Assembly: GCA_963813155.1 (NCBI GenBank) | Contig: CAWEYG010000005.1 | Location: 128,001 to 192,000 of the forward strand | From: an uncultured Acidobacteriota bacterium | GTDB taxonomy: Bacteria > Acidobacteriota > Thermoanaerobaculia > UBA5066 > DATFVB01 | DNA length: 64,000 nucleotides | Reading direction: 5' to 3' | Shown here: positions 54,445 to 64,000 of the stretch, piece after piece | Layout: each line of letters opens with the position of its first letter | Numbering within the stretch: position 1 is the stretch's first letter | Program-made: the position numbers and the translations under genes | Notes under the pieces: model-generated | The model's input: the letters and a program-made list of their open reading frames with translations, nothing else | Database searches by the model: none | What the model was told of the DNA's origin: nothing

Positions 54445-54498
54445 CAGGAGCCCTCCGTTGGCGCATTCTAACAAAAGGTGAGGGCTCTCGACCCGCTT

Positions 54499-55563
54499 CT
54501 ACTTCCCTTCCGCACCCTCCGCGTTGATGGAGTCCTGCACCTCGGTCTTCTCGGAGAAGTCGTGCGCCGCGGCCATCGCCTTGTCGAACTCCTCCTTCGC
54601 CCGGGCGTGATCCCCTTTCGCGACGTACGCGTCGCCCAGCCCAGCGTGGACGCGCCAGAGCTCTTTGCTCTCGGGGTGCTTCGCCGCGAAGTCCGACAGG
54701 TACGCGACGGCCTCGTCGTATTTCTTTGCCGCCATCAGGGGCGCGACCGTGACGTTGATCGTCTCGGCCTCATTCGCGACGAGCGCGGCGCGCTTCCGGA
54801 GCTCCGCCGCGCCTTTCGCGTCGCCGTTCTTCTCGAGCACGGCGGCCTTCGTCCGCAGCGCCGTAAACGACGAGCCGATCGCGAGCCCGTGATCCGCGTA
54901 CTCCAGCGCCGTCTTCGCGTCGCCGGCGCGAAGCTCCCAGCGCGCGGCAGCCGCCCACGCGTCGGAGCTCCAGTGCTTGCCCCCGCGCAATTCCTCGCGG
55001 ATCGACGCGCGGATCGTCGCGGGCAGGTCCACGTCGATCCGGAACGGAACGCGCAGCTTCTCCCATCGCAGGGAAGCGACGGCGGAGGCGTCCGCCAGGT
55101 CGTCGAACGTGTAGAGGAGGCGCTCCTCCGCTTCGGCGAGCGGGCGGGGAGAAACGGGCACGCGGAGGGCGTCCTCCGACGGCTCGTAGTTGTAGGTTCC
55201 CCAGTCTCCCGTGAACCTGCTGAGAACGAGAGTCCACTGGGAAGGGCCGGGAATCATGTAGAGCGCGTAGGTCCCCGCCGCGACCGGTTTTCCCTCCACC
55301 TGGACGGGAGTCGAAAAGGAAATCGTCGTGTTCTCGTTCGCGCCCGCCCGCCAGAGGACCCCGTACGGCACGAGGCCGTCCCAGATCTTCCGCTTGCTCA
55401 CGGCCGGGCGGTGATAGCGGATCTCGACGTCGGTGACGCCAATCGTCTCTCCCGCGGAGGCGGTCGGGCTCGGCCGCGGAAGCCGAATGGCGGATTGCGC
55501 GAACGCGACAGCAGGCGCGAACGCCCCGACAAACAGGGCCAGACGGGTGAATTTCGATCGCAT
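54499..55563 (-). CDS. DUF2911 domain protein with TPR-like C-terminus
   Basis: PRPSP, YHRPAV..RKIWDGLVPYG..WRAGANE, AGTYALY. Confidence 0.85.
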   Translation of the reverse strand: MRSKFTRLALFVGAFAPAVAFAQSAIRLPRPSPTASAGETIGVTDVEIRYHRPAVSKRKIWDGLVPYGVLWRAGANENTTISFSTPVQVEGKPVAAGTYALYMIPGPSQWTLVLSRFTGDWGTYNYEPSEDALRVPVSPRPLAEAEERLLYTFDDLADASAVASLRWEKLRVPFRIDVDLPATIRASIREELRGGKHWSSDAWAAAARWELRAGDAKTALEYADHGLAIGSSFTALRTKAAVLEKNGDAKGAAELRKRAALVANEAETINVTVAPLMAAKKYDEAVAYLSDFAAKHPESKELWRVHAGLGDAYVAKGDHARAKEEFDKAMAAAHDFSEKTEVQDSINAEGAEGK

Positions 55564-55686
55564 GAGACAAACCTCCCCGCGGTTCGGTACGAACCGGTTT
55601 GGGCATTGTTTCACGCCAGGTCGGGCGCGGGCGGTGTTTCAGGATCGTGAAACGGGCGTGCGAGGCCTTACGGACAAAAGCCTTCC

Positions 55687-56538
55687 CTAGGGGTTGAACC
55701 CGGAGTACGTACTGACCGCCCCGGAGCTGTTCACGCAGTACAGCTGACCCCACAGAGCCGCGCCCCCTGCATCCTGGGTGACGTCCAGGACACCGTCTGA
55801 TAGTGACACGCCGCCGAGCTGGCCGCCGATATCGGGGACAAAGAGATTCGCACACCCTTCGGAGAGAAATGGTGCGCTCTCAGTGAAAAGGCAATCACCG
55901 CTCAAGGTGGAGACCGTCGTCGAGCCGAGTACTTGACCCGCTGGATTTCGGAGCTTCACCGTGGCCGTGAGGTTGGTTACGCTGAAGTTGGAATTGATGC
56001 TCGTTAGGACGAGGTTGCAATGCTCACCTTCATTTTTTGATATTCCCGGGAACGTGAGTTGCGTTGGCCGGGAACGCGAGAGAATCGCCGGCACGCTCAG
56101 TGCCGGGAATTCAGTTTGTGCGTTCGACGCGCGATTGACCGCGTGCACATGGACGACCGGCAGCAGCGCGGGCGATCCGGCGCATGACGCACAGGACGCG
56201 ATGAAGAGAGTAAAGACGTGGTCCTGGGCGAGCGCGGCGATCTGAGCGATGTTGTCCGGATTGATAACGCCGTTCGGGATGCTGAGCGTTTGGCTGCCAT
56301 GTGGAGGAAGTGTCACACTCGTCGTGTTGCAGCCAAAATCGCAGCCACCGATAGCGTTGAAGGCGAATTCCGAGATCACCACAACCATCGGCTCGTCGAA
56401 GGGGTTCGCAAGTTCCACCTGGCTGTCCCACAGCCCGAGTGATCCAACGCCTGCGGCAACGAGCGCGTTTTGGGCGCGTGCCGACGTCGCCACCAGAAAC
56501 CCGATGGACAGTAAGGCCAGCAAACTGTTCTTCCTCAT
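55687..56538 (-). CDS. Secreted hypothetical protein with Cys pairs
   Basis: GGGAGG RBS; signal peptide; GVGSLGLWDSQVELANP; codon usage less GC-biased than core genes. Confidence 0.7.
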   Translation of the reverse strand: MRKNSLLALLSIGFLVATSARAQNALVAAGVGSLGLWDSQVELANPFDEPMVVVISEFAFNAIGGCDFGCNTTSVTLPPHGSQTLSIPNGVINPDNIAQIAALAQDHVFTLFIASCASCAGSPALLPVVHVHAVNRASNAQTEFPALSVPAILSRSRPTQLTFPGISKNEGEHCNLVLTSINSNFSVTNLTATVKLRNPAGQVLGSTTVSTLSGDCLFTESAPFLSEGCANLFVPDIGGQLGGVSLSDGVLDVTQDAGGAALWGQLYCVNSSGAVSTYSGFNP

Positions 56539-56573
56539 CGACGCCTCCCTCACGGACCCCAACGATCTTAGAC

Positions 56574-58556
56574 TTATGGCAGCCTTCCCGAGACCGGAAC
56601 TGCGTTCGGAGGCTTGACAGGGGAGATGGGGCGATCGACGTGGATGTCCGAGAGCGCCAACCGCTGGACTCCGTTGCCAAGGAAAAAAGCATAGAGCGAG
56701 TCCCCGGTGGCCTGCAGCCCGAGCGGGTAATCGCTCAGGATCCCGCCCAGAAGCGCCTGCCAGTTGCCGCCAGAGAGCGGCTTCGCGAACACGCTGCTGC
56801 CGAGGCCGGGCCCGAGTCCGAAGAGGAAATGATCACTCGACGCCTCCACCGCTCCAACCTCGGCCGCCGCAGATGCCGTCGGGCGCCAGGTCTGTCCGAG
56901 GTCATCGGTCTGAAGCAGGCCTCCGCCAGTCGCGACATAGAGCATTCCACCCACGCCATAGACCTTCCAGGCGCCGCTGTCCGGCTGGAGAACCGCTGAC
57001 CACGAGGCGCCGCCGTCGGTCGATCGGAAGACCGAGTAGTTGTCGGCGACGAAAAGCGCGTTGGCGACGACTGCGATCGCACACGTGGAGCTGGCCGGGA
57101 CCGCGACGGTCACCCAGTCGGCGGGACCGGACTTTCGATAGAGGCGCGGGCTTCCGCCGAAGGTGCCTGCATAAACGACCCCGTCCCCGGAATAGAGAGC
57201 GCAGATCTCGGGATAGGGTCGCTCGATTCCGGAACTGAAGGCGGCCCAGGTGGCGCCCTGGTCGGTGCTTCGAAAGATCCCGTCCGTCTGAGTTCCCAGG
57301 AGGAGCGACCCATCCGGATGATGCAACAGGGAAGCAGGCGAGTCGCCCGGTGTTGGGAAACCTGCCCAGGTCGAGCCGCGATCGTGGCTCGCGAAAAAAT
57401 TTCTTCCGAGATATCCGTAGACCGAGTCTCCTTCGGCAACCGCCGGGCTGAGAGTCCCGATCGGTCCTGAGTTGCTGGGTTCCCAATTCAAGCCGCCGTC
57501 CTCCGTCGCGAAGACCCCCGCGTAGATGCTGCCTGCCAGAAATCGGTCTCCGACCGAGAGAAAGGCGTTGGGAGCGTCAAGACGCAGGCCAGAGGGAGTC
57601 GCCGGAGGAGCCGGCGACCAGTTCGCCCCGCCGTTCACGGTGGAATACAGCCGCGTACAGGGAGGATCCGGGCAAGGTCCTCCGTAACCGGTCACCTCGA
57701 AGAAGGTATTTCCTGAGCCGTAGACAACTTGAGCCTCCCGGTCTGGAACCGTGGGAATAGGGGACCATGAATGACCTCGATCGAGGCTCCGGTAGAAACC
57801 GCCGGGCGTGCGCGCATACAGGGCATCCGTCCAGAGGAGCGAAAAAACGTACTGGCCCGTCAGGCCCGCGGGCTGGAAAGTTACGCCGCCGTCGTCGGAG
57901 CGCACCACTCCATTGTCGGTTCCTGCGAAGAGGGCTCCGTTGGCCCAGAGCAGGGAGTAGGGGATCCCCAGATCGGCTGGTTGTCGTGCCCATGTCGCTC
58001 CCCGGTCGGTCGACCGGTAGACGCCGCTCGTGTCTCCGCAAGGACCCGTCGGGCAGCCCGGTGGCGGAGTCGCCACCCAAATCGTCGTCGGCGAAGCGGC
58101 GACTGCGTTGATCTCGGAACTCGGGCCCTGAGACTTCGTCCACGTCGAGGAGCCGTCGAAGCTCGCGTAGAGAGTTCCAAAGACATCGGCGAAGACGACG
58201 GTGTCGCCCGAGGCAGCGAGGAGCGGCCCGGCGTAGTTCTCGGAGGGAATCTGGCCTCGCGACACTGGTGTCCATGTCCGTGCTCCATCGGTGCTTTTGA
58301 AGACGCCGGCCTCCAACAGATAGACGTAAACGGCGTTCCCCGAAGCTGCAAAGGCCATAGCGTCCCCGCCGGGTGGACTCAGAGGCGGGCCCCAGGTTTG
58401 GCCAGACGTGGCGACCGTCACGAGCAGGAAGACCGCGAGGAGACAGCAGCGAGTCGTCCTCGATGGCACCGCCGGAAATGCTGAACGGGGAGCAGCCTTC
58501 TGGGAATTGCCGAGGAGAGCAGGGATCAAACGGTCTCGTGATCGATACGGGCTCAC
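56574..58556 (-). CDS. Secreted BNR/Asp-box repeat (VPS10-like beta-propeller) protein
   Basis: Many S/T-x-D-x-G-x-T/S-W repeats; signal-like LLAVFLLVTVA; start uncertain. Confidence 0.85.
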   Translation of the reverse strand: MSPYRSRDRLIPALLGNSQKAAPRSAFPAVPSRTTRCCLLAVFLLVTVATSGQTWGPPLSPPGGDAMAFAASGNAVYVYLLEAGVFKSTDGARTWTPVSRGQIPSENYAGPLLAASGDTVVFADVFGTLYASFDGSSTWTKSQGPSSEINAVAASPTTIWVATPPPGCPTGPCGDTSGVYRSTDRGATWARQPADLGIPYSLLWANGALFAGTDNGVVRSDDGGVTFQPAGLTGQYVFSLLWTDALYARTPGGFYRSLDRGHSWSPIPTVPDREAQVVYGSGNTFFEVTGYGGPCPDPPCTRLYSTVNGGANWSPAPPATPSGLRLDAPNAFLSVGDRFLAGSIYAGVFATEDGGLNWEPSNSGPIGTLSPAVAEGDSVYGYLGRNFFASHDRGSTWAGFPTPGDSPASLLHHPDGSLLLGTQTDGIFRSTDQGATWAAFSSGIERPYPEICALYSGDGVVYAGTFGGSPRLYRKSGPADWVTVAVPASSTCAIAVVANALFVADNYSVFRSTDGGASWSAVLQPDSGAWKVYGVGGMLYVATGGGLLQTDDLGQTWRPTASAAAEVGAVEASSDHFLFGLGPGLGSSVFAKPLSGGNWQALLGGILSDYPLGLQATGDSLYAFFLGNGVQRLALSDIHVDRPISPVKPPNAVPVSGRLP

Positions 58557-58605
58557 GATGCGTCGATCATACCCTTCCCCGCCTTATCGCCCCGCCCATC
58601 GCGAG

Positions 58606-58711
58606 TTGGGAGCAGGAGGTCCCCGGTTCGCATTCAGGAAGACCCCCAGAGAAAGTTCCCGCCCTGAATTGCAAGCCTCGACGCAGGCGAGGTGAAGCGC
58701 AATCCGGGCGC
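58606..58711 (+). repeat. tRNA-Pro 3'-half copy with 71-nt T-loop insertion (copy 1, upstream of the tRNA)
   Basis: TTGGGAGCAGGAGGTCCCCGGTTC-[58630-58700]-AATCCGGGCGC. Confidence 0.9.
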
Positions 58712-58729
58712 ATGCCATAATCGCGATCA

Positions 58730-58806
58730 CGGGGCGTAGCGCAGTCCGGTAGCGCTCCTGCTTTGGGAGCAGGAGGTCCCCGGTTCAAATCCGGGCGCCC
58801 CGACCA
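58730..58806 (+). tRNA. tRNA-Pro(TGG)
   Basis: CGGGGCG/CGCCCCG acceptor stem plus ACCA, CCTGC-TTTGGGA-GCAGG anticodon arm, CCCGG-TTCAAAT-CCGGG T-arm. Confidence 0.97.
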
Positions 58807-58941
58807 ACCTTTTCTTTCGTTTAGCCTCGCGTAGCGCGAGGACCATTTCTGACGAGTTCAAAAATGAGTTCAGAGCGTCTCGATTTCAAATCGCTTTCGG
58901 GAGCACAGCGTTCTTAGCGAAGACGGAGACGTGCCGCTGAG

Positions 58942-60063
58942 TTACCGCTCCCGGGCACGCATTATCGATACGACACGAGCTGGCACGACGGGAGAGATGC
59001 ACCTACGTGACGGAGGGCAGCCCAGATCGATTACGAAAACACCGGCGTTCGTCGCGGCGAGCAGACGCCTATCGGCGGCATCAATAGTCAGTTGAACGTA
59101 TTTAAGATCCACGGGCATGCCGCCCTCGAAGAGAGACCACGTCTTCGCGCCGTCCTCGCTGCGAAGGATATGCATAACGTCCGTGGCTGGATCAAAGCTC
59201 ACCGCGTACATGACGCCCGTGCGAGCAGGATCAGCGAGCAGAGAGATCATCCGTAGGGTGCCGAACCCATTGCTCAAGGGAACCCGGTTTGCGGATGTCG
59301 TGTCGGTCCGCCACACGGCGTCGGGCGTTACGGCGTAGAGACCGGTGGAATCCCAATCGCTCTCGCACAGCGAAGAGATCCCATGAAGCGGGCCGGTCGA
59401 TGAATTGTTGAAGAGATGCCACGTCGTTCCCCCATCGATGCTTCGGGACATGTCGGTTCCTCCCGCATAGACAATTGCGGGATCACTTCGATCAACAAGA
59501 ATGGCCTGCAGATAGAAGTCCGTTAAGGGAAGTTCCTTCCACGAACTCATACCTAGCGTGAACTTAAAAGTCCCATCGCAAGGCGGAGGAGTAAGGTGGA
59601 AAGATGCCACCGCCGTTCCGATGTAAATATGGCCGGGAGGCGTCGAGTCGAGCGCAAAAGCATTATTGGGGAAGCATGGAAGGGTCCCGCTGATATCAGT
59701 CCACTGGAATCCGCCATCGGTGCTCAGAAACACGGCGTCGCCGCTGACGGCGACGACAAGCGAAGGGTTGACGGAGCTTACGGTTAGGGAAAAGACCCCT
59801 TCGAAGAACTCGATGCCGTTATCAGACTCCAACCAGGTTAACCCCGAATCGGAGCTTTTGTAGATATGTTCCGACGAGGTATTCCGTACCGAAGCGTAGA
59901 GAACTGTCGGGTTGGAAGGATCGAGGGCAATCGCATCAACGTAGCTACCTTCGAATGCTAGGCTCCTCCACTGGTTGGCGGCGGAAAATGCCACGCGACC
60001 ATCTCCCAAGAATCCGAGTAAGCCGAGAGAAAGCGCGACCACACCTCTCTTCAGCTTCATCAT
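58942..60063 (-). CDS. Secreted BNR/Asp-box repeat protein
   Basis: Signal peptide; SSDSGLTW, STDGGFQW, SIDGGTTW, SEDGAKTW. Confidence 0.85.
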   Translation of the reverse strand: MMKLKRGVVALSLGLLGFLGDGRVAFSAANQWRSLAFEGSYVDAIALDPSNPTVLYASVRNTSSEHIYKSSDSGLTWLESDNGIEFFEGVFSLTVSSVNPSLVVAVSGDAVFLSTDGGFQWTDISGTLPCFPNNAFALDSTPPGHIYIGTAVASFHLTPPPCDGTFKFTLGMSSWKELPLTDFYLQAILVDRSDPAIVYAGGTDMSRSIDGGTTWHLFNNSSTGPLHGISSLCESDWDSTGLYAVTPDAVWRTDTTSANRVPLSNGFGTLRMISLLADPARTGVMYAVSFDPATDVMHILRSEDGAKTWSLFEGGMPVDLKYVQLTIDAADRRLLAATNAGVFVIDLGCPPSRRCISPVVPARVVSIMRARER

Positions 60064-60171
60064 CAGACCTTCTGTACGGACCAGAAGGCGCGGCTGTTTG
60101 CCTTGCTGGATTCCCATGCTGGAATTGCTGAAGATAGAAGAGTTCAAAATCGAGTCCTAGGTGGGGGAATG

Positions 60172-60287
60172 TGCTTTGGGAGCAGGAGGTCCCCGGTTCG
60201 CATTCAGGAAGACCCCCAGAGAAATCCCGCCCTGAATTGCAAGCCTCGCCGCAGGCGAGGTGAAGCGCAATCCGGGCGCCCCGACCA
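60172..60287 (+). repeat. tRNA-Pro 3'-half copy with 69-nt T-loop insertion (copy 2, attR-like)
   Basis: TGCTTTGGGAGCAGGAGGTCCCCGGTTC-[60200-60268]-AATCCGGGCGCCCCGACCA. Confidence 0.92.
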
Positions 60288-60397
60288 ACCTTACTTACCG
60301 CTTTAGCCTCGTGCGCGAGGAACACTTGCGGCTGTTCCTGTGTTTGAGTTGACGACATGAGATGGCTGCCCCTCAAGCTCCGTACAAACATCAGCGC

Positions 60398-62473
60398 ATG
60401 AAATTTTTGAGACGATTGTCTTGCCTTTGGATCGCCTGTTTGATCTTACCCACGACCCTTCAGGCCGGGCGGGGACACTGGACCGGGAACGGCCCTTTCG
60501 GTGCCTGGATCACCGCAATTGCGGCGACAACGGACGGCCAGGTCATTTACGCGGGTACCGATCTCGGCGAAGTCTTTCGGAGCTCGGATGGCGGAGCGCA
60601 GTGGGATGCCGCAGATCCTAGCCTTTACGCCTATTCGTACCAAAAAATTACTTCGATCGCCATCGAGCCCGGAAACTCTTCCACGGTCTTCGTCGCTGCC
60701 GACGGGCGCGGTATCTTCAAGAGCACCGATGCAGGGAACTCCTGGATTCAGGTGAACAGCGGCTTCACTTCGCCGCCGTCGCTCTGCAGCGATATTGGGG
60801 CCTGCTCGCCGAACGTTCTTGCTGTTGATCCGTCCAACGGCAATACGGTTCTGGCGGGCACCGATAACGGCCTGTTTCGGACGACGGATGGAGGTGAGAG
60901 CTGGTCGCTTCTCGAGCCGGACGGCTACCCAAGCGACGTCGTCCAGACAATCGTTTATGACCCGGCTGACACGAACACTATCTACGTGGGCGAGTCGCTC
61001 GGGCTCTACAAGACAACCGACGGAGGAGAGACCTGGTCGGCGCAGGACGGAGGGCTGATCGAGCCCAGCGTCACAAGCCTCGCCATCGATCCTGCTGATC
61101 CCTCGGTTCTTTGGGCCGTCGATGAAGTTCGAGGTGCGTTTCGGATCAACGGAGGCGGCGCCACTTGGACCCCGATTCCGGCGCCGCTCGGTACTCGAAG
61201 GATTCTGGTCGATCCGGCGACTCCCTCGACGCTCTACGGGTTTGGCCCAAACGGTATTTTCCGCAGTGTAAACGCCGGAAATTCCTGGCGCTCGGCTGGG
61301 TACACGGCATCACCTCCCGATTCCTTCCAGGTGGTCCTCTTTGCCGGATCGCCCCCGACGCTTTTGGCGGGCACCGCGTCAGGATTCCTCGAGAGCTCGG
61401 ACCAGGGGACGACGTGGCAGGGCAGGAACCAGGGCATCAGGGAGGTGTCGGTCTCCTCGATCGCCGTCGGGCCAATCGCTCAGCCATCGATCTTTGCGGC
61501 GGTCTCCACGGGCTCCCTGGAAACGATGGGCGCCGGTTGGATCGCCGGCAGCCCCGTCAATGCGAACGACTGGTCGGCGTTGTCCGGTACGGTTGACGGT
61601 CTTGCAACGTCGGTTGTGATCGACCCAGTTAGCCCGATGAACGTCTATGCCGTCGTGGGTCTCAATTTTCTCAGGAGCACCGATGGCGGCCGGACTTGGG
61701 AGCTGATTTCCAACGGCAACTTCTCTTTCGGCTGGCTAGCCGTTGGGCCGACCAACCCGGTGACGATCTACAGCGCCATCAGGGTTGCCACGCGTATTGA
61801 CCCAATCGTCCGCTCGACCGACGGAGGGAACACATGGGTTAGTCTCAACTTTCCTTTCGACAACAGTCGCGGTCCTTTACTGCCGGCTGTCAATAGTGGG
61901 GTCGTCGTCGACCCGAACCGCGCCGGCAGGGTCTATGTTGCCGGAGACTTCGGCATTGCGCGAACGACCGACGACGGTGGAACCTGGGTGAAGTTGAGCA
62001 ACGGATACCCGAATGCTTCAGCGCTGGCGATCGCCATCGATCCGAAGCAGACCTTGACGCTGTACGCAGGGACTCTCATTGGTGTTTTCAAAACCGTCGA
62101 TGGCGGTGATCATTGGGTGAAGGTCAACGGAAATTCCCAACTAATCTTTGTCCAATCGCTCGCGGTAGATCCTGCGGACTCGCGCATTGTTTATGCAGGG
62201 ACGCAGACGGGAATCCAGGTCAGCCGCGACGGAGGAGACACATGGTCGGACCTGAGTTTGGGTCTCCCGCACCCGACGATGGTTTTCAGCCTTGCGGTCG
62301 ATCCGGCCGGCGAACGTGTTTTTGCAGGGACCGACCGCGGCGTCTACGAGTTCACGATGTCGCCGGATCTTAGCCCTGTTCCTTCTCCCGTTATTCAATC
62401 CATTCCGGGTCACTGGCGGGCGAGCGCTACCATCCATGGGCCGCGAAGACAATCCACGGAAAAACCGCGATAG
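60398..62473 (+). CDS. Secreted BNR/Asp-box repeat protein
   Basis: Signal peptide; about ten S/T-T-D-G-G-x-T/S-W repeats with AIDP motifs. Confidence 0.88.
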   Translation: MKFLRRLSCLWIACLILPTTLQAGRGHWTGNGPFGAWITAIAATTDGQVIYAGTDLGEVFRSSDGGAQWDAADPSLYAYSYQKITSIAIEPGNSSTVFVAADGRGIFKSTDAGNSWIQVNSGFTSPPSLCSDIGACSPNVLAVDPSNGNTVLAGTDNGLFRTTDGGESWSLLEPDGYPSDVVQTIVYDPADTNTIYVGESLGLYKTTDGGETWSAQDGGLIEPSVTSLAIDPADPSVLWAVDEVRGAFRINGGGATWTPIPAPLGTRRILVDPATPSTLYGFGPNGIFRSVNAGNSWRSAGYTASPPDSFQVVLFAGSPPTLLAGTASGFLESSDQGTTWQGRNQGIREVSVSSIAVGPIAQPSIFAAVSTGSLETMGAGWIAGSPVNANDWSALSGTVDGLATSVVIDPVSPMNVYAVVGLNFLRSTDGGRTWELISNGNFSFGWLAVGPTNPVTIYSAIRVATRIDPIVRSTDGGNTWVSLNFPFDNSRGPLLPAVNSGVVVDPNRAGRVYVAGDFGIARTTDDGGTWVKLSNGYPNASALAIAIDPKQTLTLYAGTLIGVFKTVDGGDHWVKVNGNSQLIFVQSLAVDPADSRIVYAGTQTGIQVSRDGGDTWSDLSLGLPHPTMVFSLAVDPAGERVFAGTDRGVYEFTMSPDLSPVPSPVIQSIPGHWRASATIHGPRRQSTEKPR

Positions 62474-62515
62474 GCTCCAGGGATGAAAAACCCGGCCCGG
62501 CTTGGCGCCCGGCGT

Positions 62516-62908
62516 ATGCGCTCGGCCGCCTTCGCCCTTTTCGTGGCGTCACTCTTCCTCTCCGGCGGCTGCGCGAGCGTCGCGCAGGTGACGAACATTT
62601 CGGAGGACGCTTGCCACCGGAGCTTTCAGAACGCGCTCGCGTCGATTCTGACCGCCGAAGGCGAAAAGCCCGAAGTCGCCGAGAAGCTCGTCTCGCACGC
62701 GCTCTCGATTCTTTCGACCGGAATCGTCGGCCCGCGGCCCTTCCTCGTGTCGTCGCCGTCGGGCGCCGACTACGAGCTGTTCGTCCAGGCGAAGAAGCCG
62801 GGATGCCTCCTGCGGCTCTACGCGCGGCAAAAGGGGTTCGTCCGGTACACGAACAACATGACCTACCTCCAGACGCGGCCGCTCCCGGCGTGCGCCTGCG
62901 CGGAGTGA
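62516..62908 (+). CDS. Putative lipoprotein
   Basis: MRSAAFALFVASLFLSGG-C lipobox-like signal; additional Cys residues. Confidence 0.65.
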   Translation: MRSAAFALFVASLFLSGGCASVAQVTNISEDACHRSFQNALASILTAEGEKPEVAEKLVSHALSILSTGIVGPRPFLVSSPSGADYELFVQAKKPGCLLRLYARQKGFVRYTNNMTYLQTRPLPACACAE

Positions 62909-62929
62909 ATTTCTTCCGGTCGTAACTCC

Positions 62930-63575
62930 TCAGGAAAGATAGCCGGCCTTGACGGCCTGCAGGACGGCGCGCGTGCGGTCGCGCACGCCGAGCTTCGAGA
63001 GGATGCTCGACACGTGGTTCTTCACCGTGCCCTCGGCGACGCCGAGCGCCCGGGCGATCTCACGGTTGCTGTAGCCGCCGGTCATCAGGCGCAGCACGTC
63101 GACTTCACGCTCCGTCAGGGGATCGGGGGGATCGAGGTGGGGAAAGCTGCTGTTCGTCGCTTCGAGGCCTCGGATCACGCGCTCAGATACGACCGGTTGA
63201 ATGGCGGTCCCGCCCGATGCGACGACCCGGATCGCCTGGACCAGCTCCTCGAGGGAGATGTCCTTGAGCAGGTAGCCGCGAGCGCCGGCGCGCACGCCTT
63301 CCAGGACCGCGGCTTCGTCGTCGAACGTCGTGAGGATGATGACGGGCGGGAGACATCCCGCTTCTCCGAGCCTCCGGAGCACGTCGAGGCCGGAGAGCCG
63401 CGGCAAGCCTCAAGTCCAGGAGCACGACGTCCGCTGCCGATCGAGGAATCGCCGCGAGCGCTTCCTCGCCGTCCGATGCCGTGCCGACAACCGCGATTTC
63501 CGCGTCGAGCGCGAGGAGGTTCCGGATTCCCTCGCGGACGAGCGCCTGGTCTTCGACGAGAAAGACGCGGATCAC
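62930..63575 (-). CDS. NarL/LuxR-family response regulator (one extra base near 63407)
   Basis: VIRVFLVEDQALVREG..DVVLLDLR | LPRLSG..LTTFDD..LTEREVDVL..GTVKNHVS; span 646 nt = 3n+1. Confidence 0.88.
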
Positions 63576-64000
63576 GGCGCCGTGCCGGGGATCGGAAGAA
63601 TCGCCGTCAGCGAAAACCCCCGGCCGGGCGCCGTTTCGACGGAGAAGCCCCCGCCTCGCTGCTCGACCCGGTCCCGCATTCCGGAGAGGCCGCCTCCCGC
63701 GTGAACGGCGCCGGCCCCGCGGCCGTCGTCGCGCGCGCGGATCTCGACGTCGTCGGCCCTCCTCACGACTCCGATCCACAGGTTCTCGGCCTGGGCGTGT
63801 CGGACGGTGTTCGTGACGATCTCCTGGGCGCACCGCAGAACGACCTCTCCGATGGCGGGATCGTCGAGAGTGAAGCCGGGCACGACGTCGACGTGAATGC
63901 GGAGGCGGGGAATTCCGTCCGCGAGCTTCTGGAGCGCCGCCGAAAGGTCGAGGCCCCTTTCCTGGCGCAGCGCCCCGACGACCGCGCGCACGTCGCCGAG
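63572..64000 (-). CDS. NarX-type sensor histidine kinase, C-terminal part
   Basis: QEIVTNTVRHA, DDGRG, GGGLSGMRDRV. Confidence 0.88.
   Translation of the reverse strand, partial: LGDVRAVVGALRQERGLDLSAALQKLADGIPRLRIHVDVVPGFTLDDPAIGEVVLRCAQEIVTNTVRHAQAENLWIGVVRRADDVEIRARDDGRGAGAVHAGGGLSGMRDRVEQRGGGFSVETAPGRGFSLTAILPIPGTAP

Follow-up and report, generated by a model that had tools for sequence, protein, structure and literature searches.

A probable worn, integrase-less islet beside tRNA-Pro(UGG) in an uncultured Thermoanaerobaculia bacterium from soil

Background

How does a tRNA gene come to stand between two partial copies of itself, both interrupted at the same point of the T-loop by nearly the same insert? 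The question is raised by a tRNA-Pro(UGG) locus in a 64,000-nt stretch of DNA (here called the window; positions 128001-192000 of contig C5) from the genome bin G000 of an uncultured soil Thermoanaerobaculia bacterium. An initial annotation took the locus for a minimal one-gene cassette mobilised in trans, and proposed that the T-loop insert serves as a toxin-free lock, since excision of the cargo gene could be lethal through the tRNA that it would leave behind. Our analysis points to a different history: the locus is probably a worn, integrase-less islet at a tRNA-Pro(UGG) hot spot, and its relic tRNA copies would share an old small-repeat insertion.

The source bin has 3.8 Mb in 23 contigs, 66% GC, and is 90.8% complete and 3.76% contaminated. 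The relatives that bear most on the locus are G001, of the same genus (flanking genes 86-91% identical); G026, of the same order; and G002, an unpublished genome whose contig L005 has the same sequence as the public locus L033. Every claim below of a second insert-bearing species depends on this single contig (L005/L033). Sequencing runs X1-X4 were examined as Logan contigs.

Structure of the locus

The intact tRNA-Pro(UGG) gene (58730-58806, + strand, anticodon TGG; ARAGORN, and Rfam RF00005 at 68.5 bits) is accompanied by two copies of its 3' half, an arrangement that the initial annotation had described and that alignment and repeat search bear out. The upstream copy (58606-58711, + strand; tRNA positions ~33-68 with a 71-nt T-loop insert) follows the tRNA from its anticodon (TTGGGA) until three bases (CGC) into the 3' acceptor strand; the 5' half, the rest of that strand and CCA are missing. 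Its last 5 nt (GGCGC) are found in the native flank of G001 as well. The downstream copy (60172-60287, + strand; positions ~29-76 plus CCA, with a 69-nt T-loop insert) begins with the last 3 nt of the 5' anticodon-stem strand and runs through CCA. The two are 97% identical over 104 nt, and a whole-genome search of the bin found no further copies beyond these places. As measured against the cloverleaf of a functional tRNA, the upstream copy is missing positions 1-32 and 69-76 and the downstream copy positions 1-28, the related copy in G002 also lacks the 3' acceptor strand, and none of these partial copies was called as a tRNA by ARAGORN or Rfam. Judged by what they retain, both partial copies in G000 are predicted to be non-functional tRNA gene (tDNA) fragments.

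Similarity to the downstream copy continues about 40 nt beyond CCA, as had also been noted: the 3' flank of the intact tRNA (58807-58848, + strand), with its GC-rich hairpin (AGCCTCGCG..CGCGAGG; repeats D5 and D9), has a homologous hairpin-bearing flank at 60288-60330 (+ strand; ~40 nt at 81% identity, E=4.4e-8). Of these two flanks the latter probably is the older one, native to the tRNA gene. Its CCGCT stretch is closer to the G001 flank than is the tRNA-side flank, a weak comparison made by eye. On either side of the insert, the intact gene and the downstream copy share a 28-nt block 5' of it (58759-58786 / 60172-60199) and a 24-nt perfect block 3' of it (58788-58811 / 60269-60292).

By genome-wide ARAGORN search 58730-58806 is the sole canonical tRNA-Pro(UGG) in the bin. 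A second ARAGORN call of tRNA-Pro(tgg), at C5 c15370-15444 (Rfam 50.6 bits), was rejected as a decayed copy of tRNA-Arg(TCG): it aligns over its full length with a tRNA-Arg(TCG) gene 3.8 kb away on the same strand, its anticodon has gone from TCG to TGG, it has mismatches in three stems and no CCA, and its homologues are tRNA-Arg(tcg) in G001, G002, G004 and G005, the G003 locus having given no tRNA call. An 'extra tRNA-Pro' call can thus be a mutated tRNA-Arg pseudogene. Within the surrounding interval (C5:11561-15444, L049), about 100 nt from the decayed Arg copy, there is a Guanidine-II riboswitch match at 33.6 bits (gathering threshold 32). One more ARAGORN call, an 87-nt 'tRNA-Pro(cgg)' at C3:675832-675918, is unusual in sequence and places its anticodon at position 31; it probably represents either a spurious call or a tRNA-like element.

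The T-loop insert

In both copies the T-loop reads TTC-[insert]-AAT by alignment and repeat search. The inserts (upstream 58630-58700, 71 nt; downstream 60200-60268, 69 nt; both + strand) are a 2-nt indel and one substitution apart, and no other copy was found in a whole-genome search of the bin. That the insert interrupts the T-loop, as first annotated, is right; that it replaced one A of the loop would not be if the ancestral T-loop was TTCGAAT, since the insert would then sit after G57 with no base replaced (the tRNA-Pro of G026 has TTCG).

Folded alone, the insert forms two hairpins, which in the downstream copy are P1 (60200-60208 / 60231-60240) and P2 (60243-60250 / 60254-60261), with z-scores of -3.3, -1.3 and -2.3 in the three known copies, the first of these for the downstream copy; the T-arm plus insert folds at z=-1.7. 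Rfam at E<=10 over 58400-60500 found only tRNA, a sigma-70 promoter scan gave 0 sites, and terminator-like sites were no commoner than in shuffled sequence. A repetitive extragenic palindromic (REP)-like reading of the P2 hairpin was rejected, such GC-rich hairpins being generic in G000 and forming no family.

Outside G000 a complete insert occurs in one of 400 other genomes of the class, G002. An 18-mer from the insert gave 8 matches across all species genomes, one of them real (L033), 9 matches in JGI metagenomes, none of them real, and none in IMG/VR. The G002 insert sits in a tRNA-Pro copy that has a complete 5' half and ends at the same acceptor-strand CGC; an intact tRNA-Pro lies 31 nt 3' of this copy, and beyond it there is unrelated DNA rather than the DNA found at this position in G000. 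Between G000 and G002 the insert-bearing piece has 96% identity across 110 nt, and the insert alone ~93-96% by our own count, with all differences but one in the P1 loop, while coding DNA of the two genomes is 79-86% identical and the neighbouring spacer, by eye, about two-thirds identical. In one base, the 5' T-stem strand of the G002 copy is of the G000/G001 type and not of G002's own.

The piece is also seen in states of loss. In a run X3 contig, from another study and with an upstream gene ~95% identical to that in the window, the upstream gene, upstream copy and tRNA are bridged, and 93 nt of the upstream copy are swapped for 19 nt that keep the insert's last bases, which makes this version a derivative by deletion. 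In run X2, a single contig of low depth follows 60169-60200 and leaves the copy precisely where the insert begins. Because the insert-bearing piece is deleted in the X3 strain and absent from G001, it is dispensable.

The variable region and its genes

Only 1.37 kb and one gene lie between the intact tRNA and the downstream copy. This cargo gene (58942-60066, - strand) encodes a predicted 374-aa secreted BNR/sortilin-like protein, its Pfam Sortilin-Vps10 match (4.6e-5) being weak and below cut-off. GC content falls to 54-59% across 58750-60749, the genome as a whole standing at 66%. Orthologues of the cargo are lacking in G001, G002, G004 and G005, where the best matches are 33-37% identical, and a search of 5.8 billion proteins returned 36 matches: itself, one 54% relative and 34 at <=35%. 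Because G002 has the insert upstream of its tRNA without this cargo, and a related strain has a deleted version, the insert appears to be older than the cargo.

The initial annotation had asked for relatives to be checked for empty sites and swapped cargo, and in G001 both the cargo and the two half copies are missing. Synteny with G001 holds up to 58596 and resumes at 62505; the tRNA is present, and in place of 58816-62504 (3.69 kb) G001 has 0.96 kb of unrelated DNA. Since synteny resumes only at 62505, the downstream half copy lies in the middle of the variable region, which is thus larger than the 'cassette' between the tRNA and that copy. A second BNR/sortilin-like gene, encoding 703 aa (60362-62473, + strand; Pfam Sortilin-Vps10 1.1e-27, PSII_BNR 1.7e-13), falls within the stretch missing from G001.

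Just before the upstream copy lies a gene for another BNR/Asp-box (sortilin-Vps10-like) secreted protein (56574-58556, - strand; Pfam BNR 2.2e-14, Sortilin-Vps10 1.3e-13), whose true start is likely near 58475. It is syntenic with G001, at 91% DNA identity up to 58596, and judged by that synteny it is context, outside the variable DNA. A segmental duplication of 'BNR gene plus half copy' was considered and rejected, the two BNR proteins being only 23% identical and the DNA before the two copies aligning only as a 28-nt match at 79%. Further along, from window position 62908 to beyond the window end (C5:190908-197628), another 6.7 kb is missing from G001 between syntenic genes.

Recombinases and other tRNA loci

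That there is no integrase in the window holds up: a Pfam scan of the open reading frames (ORFs) of 54478-63997 found no recombinase. A genome-wide PF00589 search for tyrosine recombinases in G000 returned only XerD, XerC and a frameshifted integron integrase, the last split over two overlapping frames (C3:294944-296120; L077 945-2121) whose N-terminal part matches TIGR02249 1-192 (1.3e-70) and whose C-terminal part matches 185-315 (1.3e-62). There was no phage-type integrase in the 90.8%-complete assembly.

In G026 a truncated tyrosine integrase, of which the C-terminal half is left (PF00589, 5.5e-11), stands directly after the tRNA-Pro(UGG) gene; 1.7 kb downstream of the tRNA there is a 45-nt repeat that spans anticodon loop to CCA and has no insert. 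In G023 the intact tRNA-Pro lies at the end of one contig, and a separate contig holds a 3' half. Altogether extra tRNA-Pro pieces were found in three of the 40 relatives searched (G002, G023 and G026), and on these arrangements tRNA-Pro(UGG) is an integration site in this lineage.

Within G000 itself, 3' fragments displaced by 5-15.5 kb were found for at least four more tRNA genes: Glu(ctc) at C1:605212, Arg(tct) at C1:858600, Ala(cgc) at C2:371298 and Gly(ccc) at C3:187442. No recombinase was found in these four intervals by the genome-wide PF00589 search, nor in any of the 10 ORFs scanned of the 33 listed; integrase-less tRNA islets are thus common in this genome. The four carry kinases, transporters and a beta-lactamase-fold protein.

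Origin of the insert

Part of the insert, together with the T-loop AATC, resembles the left-arm unit of a TGTCATTGCGAG..hairpin..GAAGCAATC repeat family (60236-60272 on the + strand in the downstream copy; 58668-58704 in the upstream copy). With a 76-nt query made of the insert plus 5 nt and 2 nt of flank, BLAST matched query positions 42-73 in no fewer than six genomes from a different family of the class (31-32 nt, 87-88% identity), the matches often lying at contig ends and in tandem arrays; the best E for this query was 1.2e-4 per genome across 401 genomes. The matching repeats have the form GTCATTGCGAG-hairpin-CGAAGCAATC, and one hairpin pair differs between insert and repeat by a compensated C-G to T-A change.

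G000 has about nine elements of this kind, palindromes of 75-135 nt with arms TGTCATTGCGAG...CTCGC(A/G)ATGACA, at C1:551731, C1:648973, C1:850651, C2:173104, C4:59423, C6:528, C6:30895, C6:33547 and C11:43743. Members of the family turn up in other Thermoanaerobaculia genera too (L059-L065), in tandem arrays and at the ends of contigs, and no gene associated with the family came to light. In an nhmmer search with a profile of four sub-variant units, units that had been found with the insert as query, the two inserts were the top two G000 matches (E=1.8e-5 and 3.6e-4). The insert is not a complete palindromic element: it has one left-arm-like unit after the short stem P1 and no right arm. No RAYT/Y1 transposase (PF01797) was found in the G000 genome, and a literature search by sequence words, the only search made for the TGTCATTGCGAG...GAAGCAATC...CTCGC(A/G)ATGACA family, found nothing relevant. 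On these resemblances an origin of the insert from the repeat family is probable.

Assembly support

No listed Logan contig of runs X1-X4 spans the repeats. For the position of the upstream copy there is independent support in another genome (L005/L033) and in the run X3 contig; the downstream copy is supported by this assembly alone. All 30 bins of the stretch are covered in run X1, and the only contig over 58681 in the likely source run carries the downstream copy's base.

The small contigs of the bin, C7-C23 except C11, are variants, 76-99.9% identical, of regions on the large contigs (C10, for example, matches C6:150785-159300, and C12 matches C3:993116-999737). The bin thus mixes at least two related populations, and the duplicated calls of tRNA-Pro(ggg), tRNA-Pro(cgg), tRNA-His and tRNA-Arg(ccg) in G000 are accounted for by this mixing. 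Transfer-messenger RNA (tmRNA) genes with an identical tag lie on three small contigs (C7:6315-6673, C8:7244-7602 and C19:34200-34558), and all three contigs match one and the same end of contig C2 (86-93% identity), an indication either of co-binned strains or of DNA beside the tmRNA gene that varies from strain to strain.

Interpretation

The layout of a tRNA-linked insertion is borne out: an intact tDNA, low-GC foreign DNA, and a 3' fragment that begins at the anticodon stem-loop. We think it probable that this is a worn islet without an integrase, its relic copies sharing an old small-repeat insertion at a tRNA-Pro(UGG) hot spot. The tRNA-Pro(UGG) gene would then be a hot spot of recombination and integration, and the DNA of 58816-62504 would be foreign or fast-turning-over, its own recombinase lost or never present. 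In the order of events that we infer, a tyrosine-integrase element would have crossed over in the anticodon loop, restored the gene with its own 3' half and displaced the old half. Both partial copies would descend from one ancestral tDNA fragment which, as neutral DNA, gained a ~70-nt two-hairpin insertion in its T-loop, probably from the small palindromic repeat family that is dispersed in G000 as in further genera of its class; later, this fragment would have been copied or converted and trimmed differently among lineages.

Several points weigh against this history. The upstream 3'-half copy is not a product of the standard model. Integration sublocations are said to fall into anticodon-loop, T-loop and 3'-end classes (the scheme of Williams, 2002), and we tried histories with a crossover at each of these places, as well as reversed polarity and tandem duplication: none fits the boundaries of all three copies. 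Since under that model it is the displaced native half that carries the insert, the insertion would have come after displacement and then been copied upstream, or else conversion would have taken place. The conservation of the insert-bearing half between G000 and G002 far exceeds that of the surrounding DNA, and a long-dead fragment should have drifted more; simple neutral decay does not account for this, and selection, gene conversion or recent transfer must have played a part. As to the repeat family, a profile of 17 of its units gives no match to the insert at E<=10, and the positive four-unit profile is partly circular because of how its units were found. Finally, the bin is 90.8% complete and holds contigs of a second related strain.

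Conservation between species also speaks for a circulating module. In this account the insert-bearing half still circulates among species of the genus, either as part of a small mobile module or as the attachment region of an integrative element that has escaped notice; it would insert at or beside tRNA-Pro, and both G000 copies and the G002 copy would be recent arrivals. The insert is 93-96% identical between genomes of 79-86% coding identity, G000 has two copies that both start from the anticodon stem-loop, the upstream copy is cleanly present or absent when compared with G001, the 5' T-stem strand of the G002 copy is of the G000/G001 type (one base), and the run X2 contig diverges exactly at the insert start, as if a different insert were there (one low-depth contig). 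Set against this, a module in circulation has left three copies in all, in G000 and one of 400 other genomes of the class, with no further real copy among the 8 species-genome matches or the 9 in JGI metagenomes and none in IMG/VR; the genome offers no recombinase candidate; the upstream copy has 5-nt microhomology at its right junction, which suggests an illegitimate joint and not a site-specific one; and the copies are decaying in relatives. We regard an exchanged module as unlikely. A reading that joins such a module to the idea of a lock, in which the insert of such an exchanged attachment region makes excision non-restorative and acts as a ratchet that fixes DNA caught beside the only tRNA-Pro(UGG), has a slim chance of being right; if true, it would be a case of recombination-site domestication of cargo without a toxin.

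To the initial proposal of a one-gene cassette mobilised in trans, with the T-loop insert selected as a toxin-free lock, we give little credence. Its geometry stands: a crossover within the 28-nt block would join the 5' part of the tRNA to the interrupted half, the intact gene is the sole canonical tRNA-Pro(UGG) in the bin (a search that the initial annotation had called for), and the cargo is species-specific and of low GC. What the comparisons do not sustain is a selected retention mechanism. There is no integrase present for the excision; the insert predates the cargo and occurs without it in G002; the piece is lost from G001 and deleted in the X3 strain; and because of the 24-nt perfect block 3' of the insert, cargo and insert could be lost together, harmlessly and with the tRNA intact. 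Insert-free, integrase-less tRNA islets are common in G000, and thus no lock is needed for retention. Nor is mobilisation in trans sustained, as the assembly holds only XerC, XerD and a broken integron integrase, a single relative of the cargo exceeds 35% identity among the 36 matches, and no circular or empty-site junction was seen in the contigs, leaving the cargo without evidence of mobility. A broken tRNA from anticodon-loop excision would be at most a by-product or side effect of decay, and not a selected retention device. The geometry would nonetheless make site-specific excision lethal, which is a simple route for acquired DNA to become fixed.

It is very improbable that the insert-bearing piece is preserved by purifying selection as a functional tRNA-derived RNA or DNA signal, for example a leader, a processing signal or a protein-binding site lying upstream of both the tRNA and the 703-aa gene. 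Its stems are conserved, with changes confined to a loop, both G000 copies lie just upstream of a +-strand gene, and in two of three copies the insert folds better than shuffled sequences (z=-3.3 and -2.3); yet in the remaining copy the insert has no such advantage over shuffles (z=-1.3), with the entire T-arm included z is -1.7, there are no compensatory changes among the three copies, no Rfam family was matched even at E<=10 and no promoter-like site was found, the copies end differently, and G001 lacks the piece, while the X3 strain has it in deleted form. An assembly artefact, in which reads of co-binned strains were mis-joined at the repeated tRNA sequence to give the three-copy layout, is hardly credible. 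The bin does hold second-strain contigs (76-99.9% identical to parts of the large contigs), and in the likely source run the Logan contigs end where the repeats lie, the one over 58681 having the downstream copy's base; but the upstream layout is seen separately in L005/L033 and in the run X3 contig bridging gene, copy and tRNA, run X1 covers all 30 bins of the stretch, and the two copies differ in sequence and have different unique flanks.

Read as a worn islet, the locus would be an ordinary outcome of island turnover at a tRNA gene, and a worked example of how an attachment-site (att) relic decays by small-repeat insertion, truncation and copying. If the interrupted half proves as well conserved in more genomes, this would point to a structure under constraint or to a very small module in exchange.

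Comparison with known systems

Genomic islands in tRNA and tmRNA genes (Islander type), as outlined in PMC4383910, have a tyrosine integrase and a regenerated tDNA plus a displaced 3' fragment. The present locus resembles them in the intact tDNA at one end (58730-58806), in the direct repeat of the 3' part of the tDNA from the anticodon stem-loop (its identity here broken by the 69-nt insert), in the low-GC, species-specific DNA between the repeats that is missing from G001 at the same site, and in the integrase remnant beside the same tRNA in its relative G026. It differs from them in having no integrase at the locus, only 1.37 kb and one gene between the repeats, a further truncated copy upstream of the tRNA, and variable DNA that runs 2.2 kb past the displaced fragment.

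Elements flanked by att sites, without an integrase and mobilised in trans, include the cis-mobilisable elements (CIMEs) of the Streptococcus thermophilus ICESt1/ICESt3 family and the mobilisable genomic islands. The locus is like CIMEs in its small cargo between att-like repeats without a recombinase of its own; unlike them, it has no helper element or cognate integrase in the assembly, one of its att-like repeats is disrupted, and neither excision nor a second occurrence of the cassette is in evidence (no joint across 58807-60171 in Logan contigs, a weak test). Among small dispersed palindromic repeats, which include REP elements and bacterial interspersed mosaic elements (REP/BIME) and repeats like miniature inverted-repeat transposable elements (MITE), the comparison is with the TGTCATTGCGAG...GAAGCAATC...CTCGC(A/G)ATGACA family: the 3' 37 nt of the insert align with one of its left-arm units, including a hairpin with a compensated pair; the insert differs in being an incomplete palindrome to which the 17-unit profile gives no match, in a genome with no RAYT/Y1 transposase (PF01797). 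Set beside these systems, the locus has one odd feature, the conservation of its interrupted half between species.

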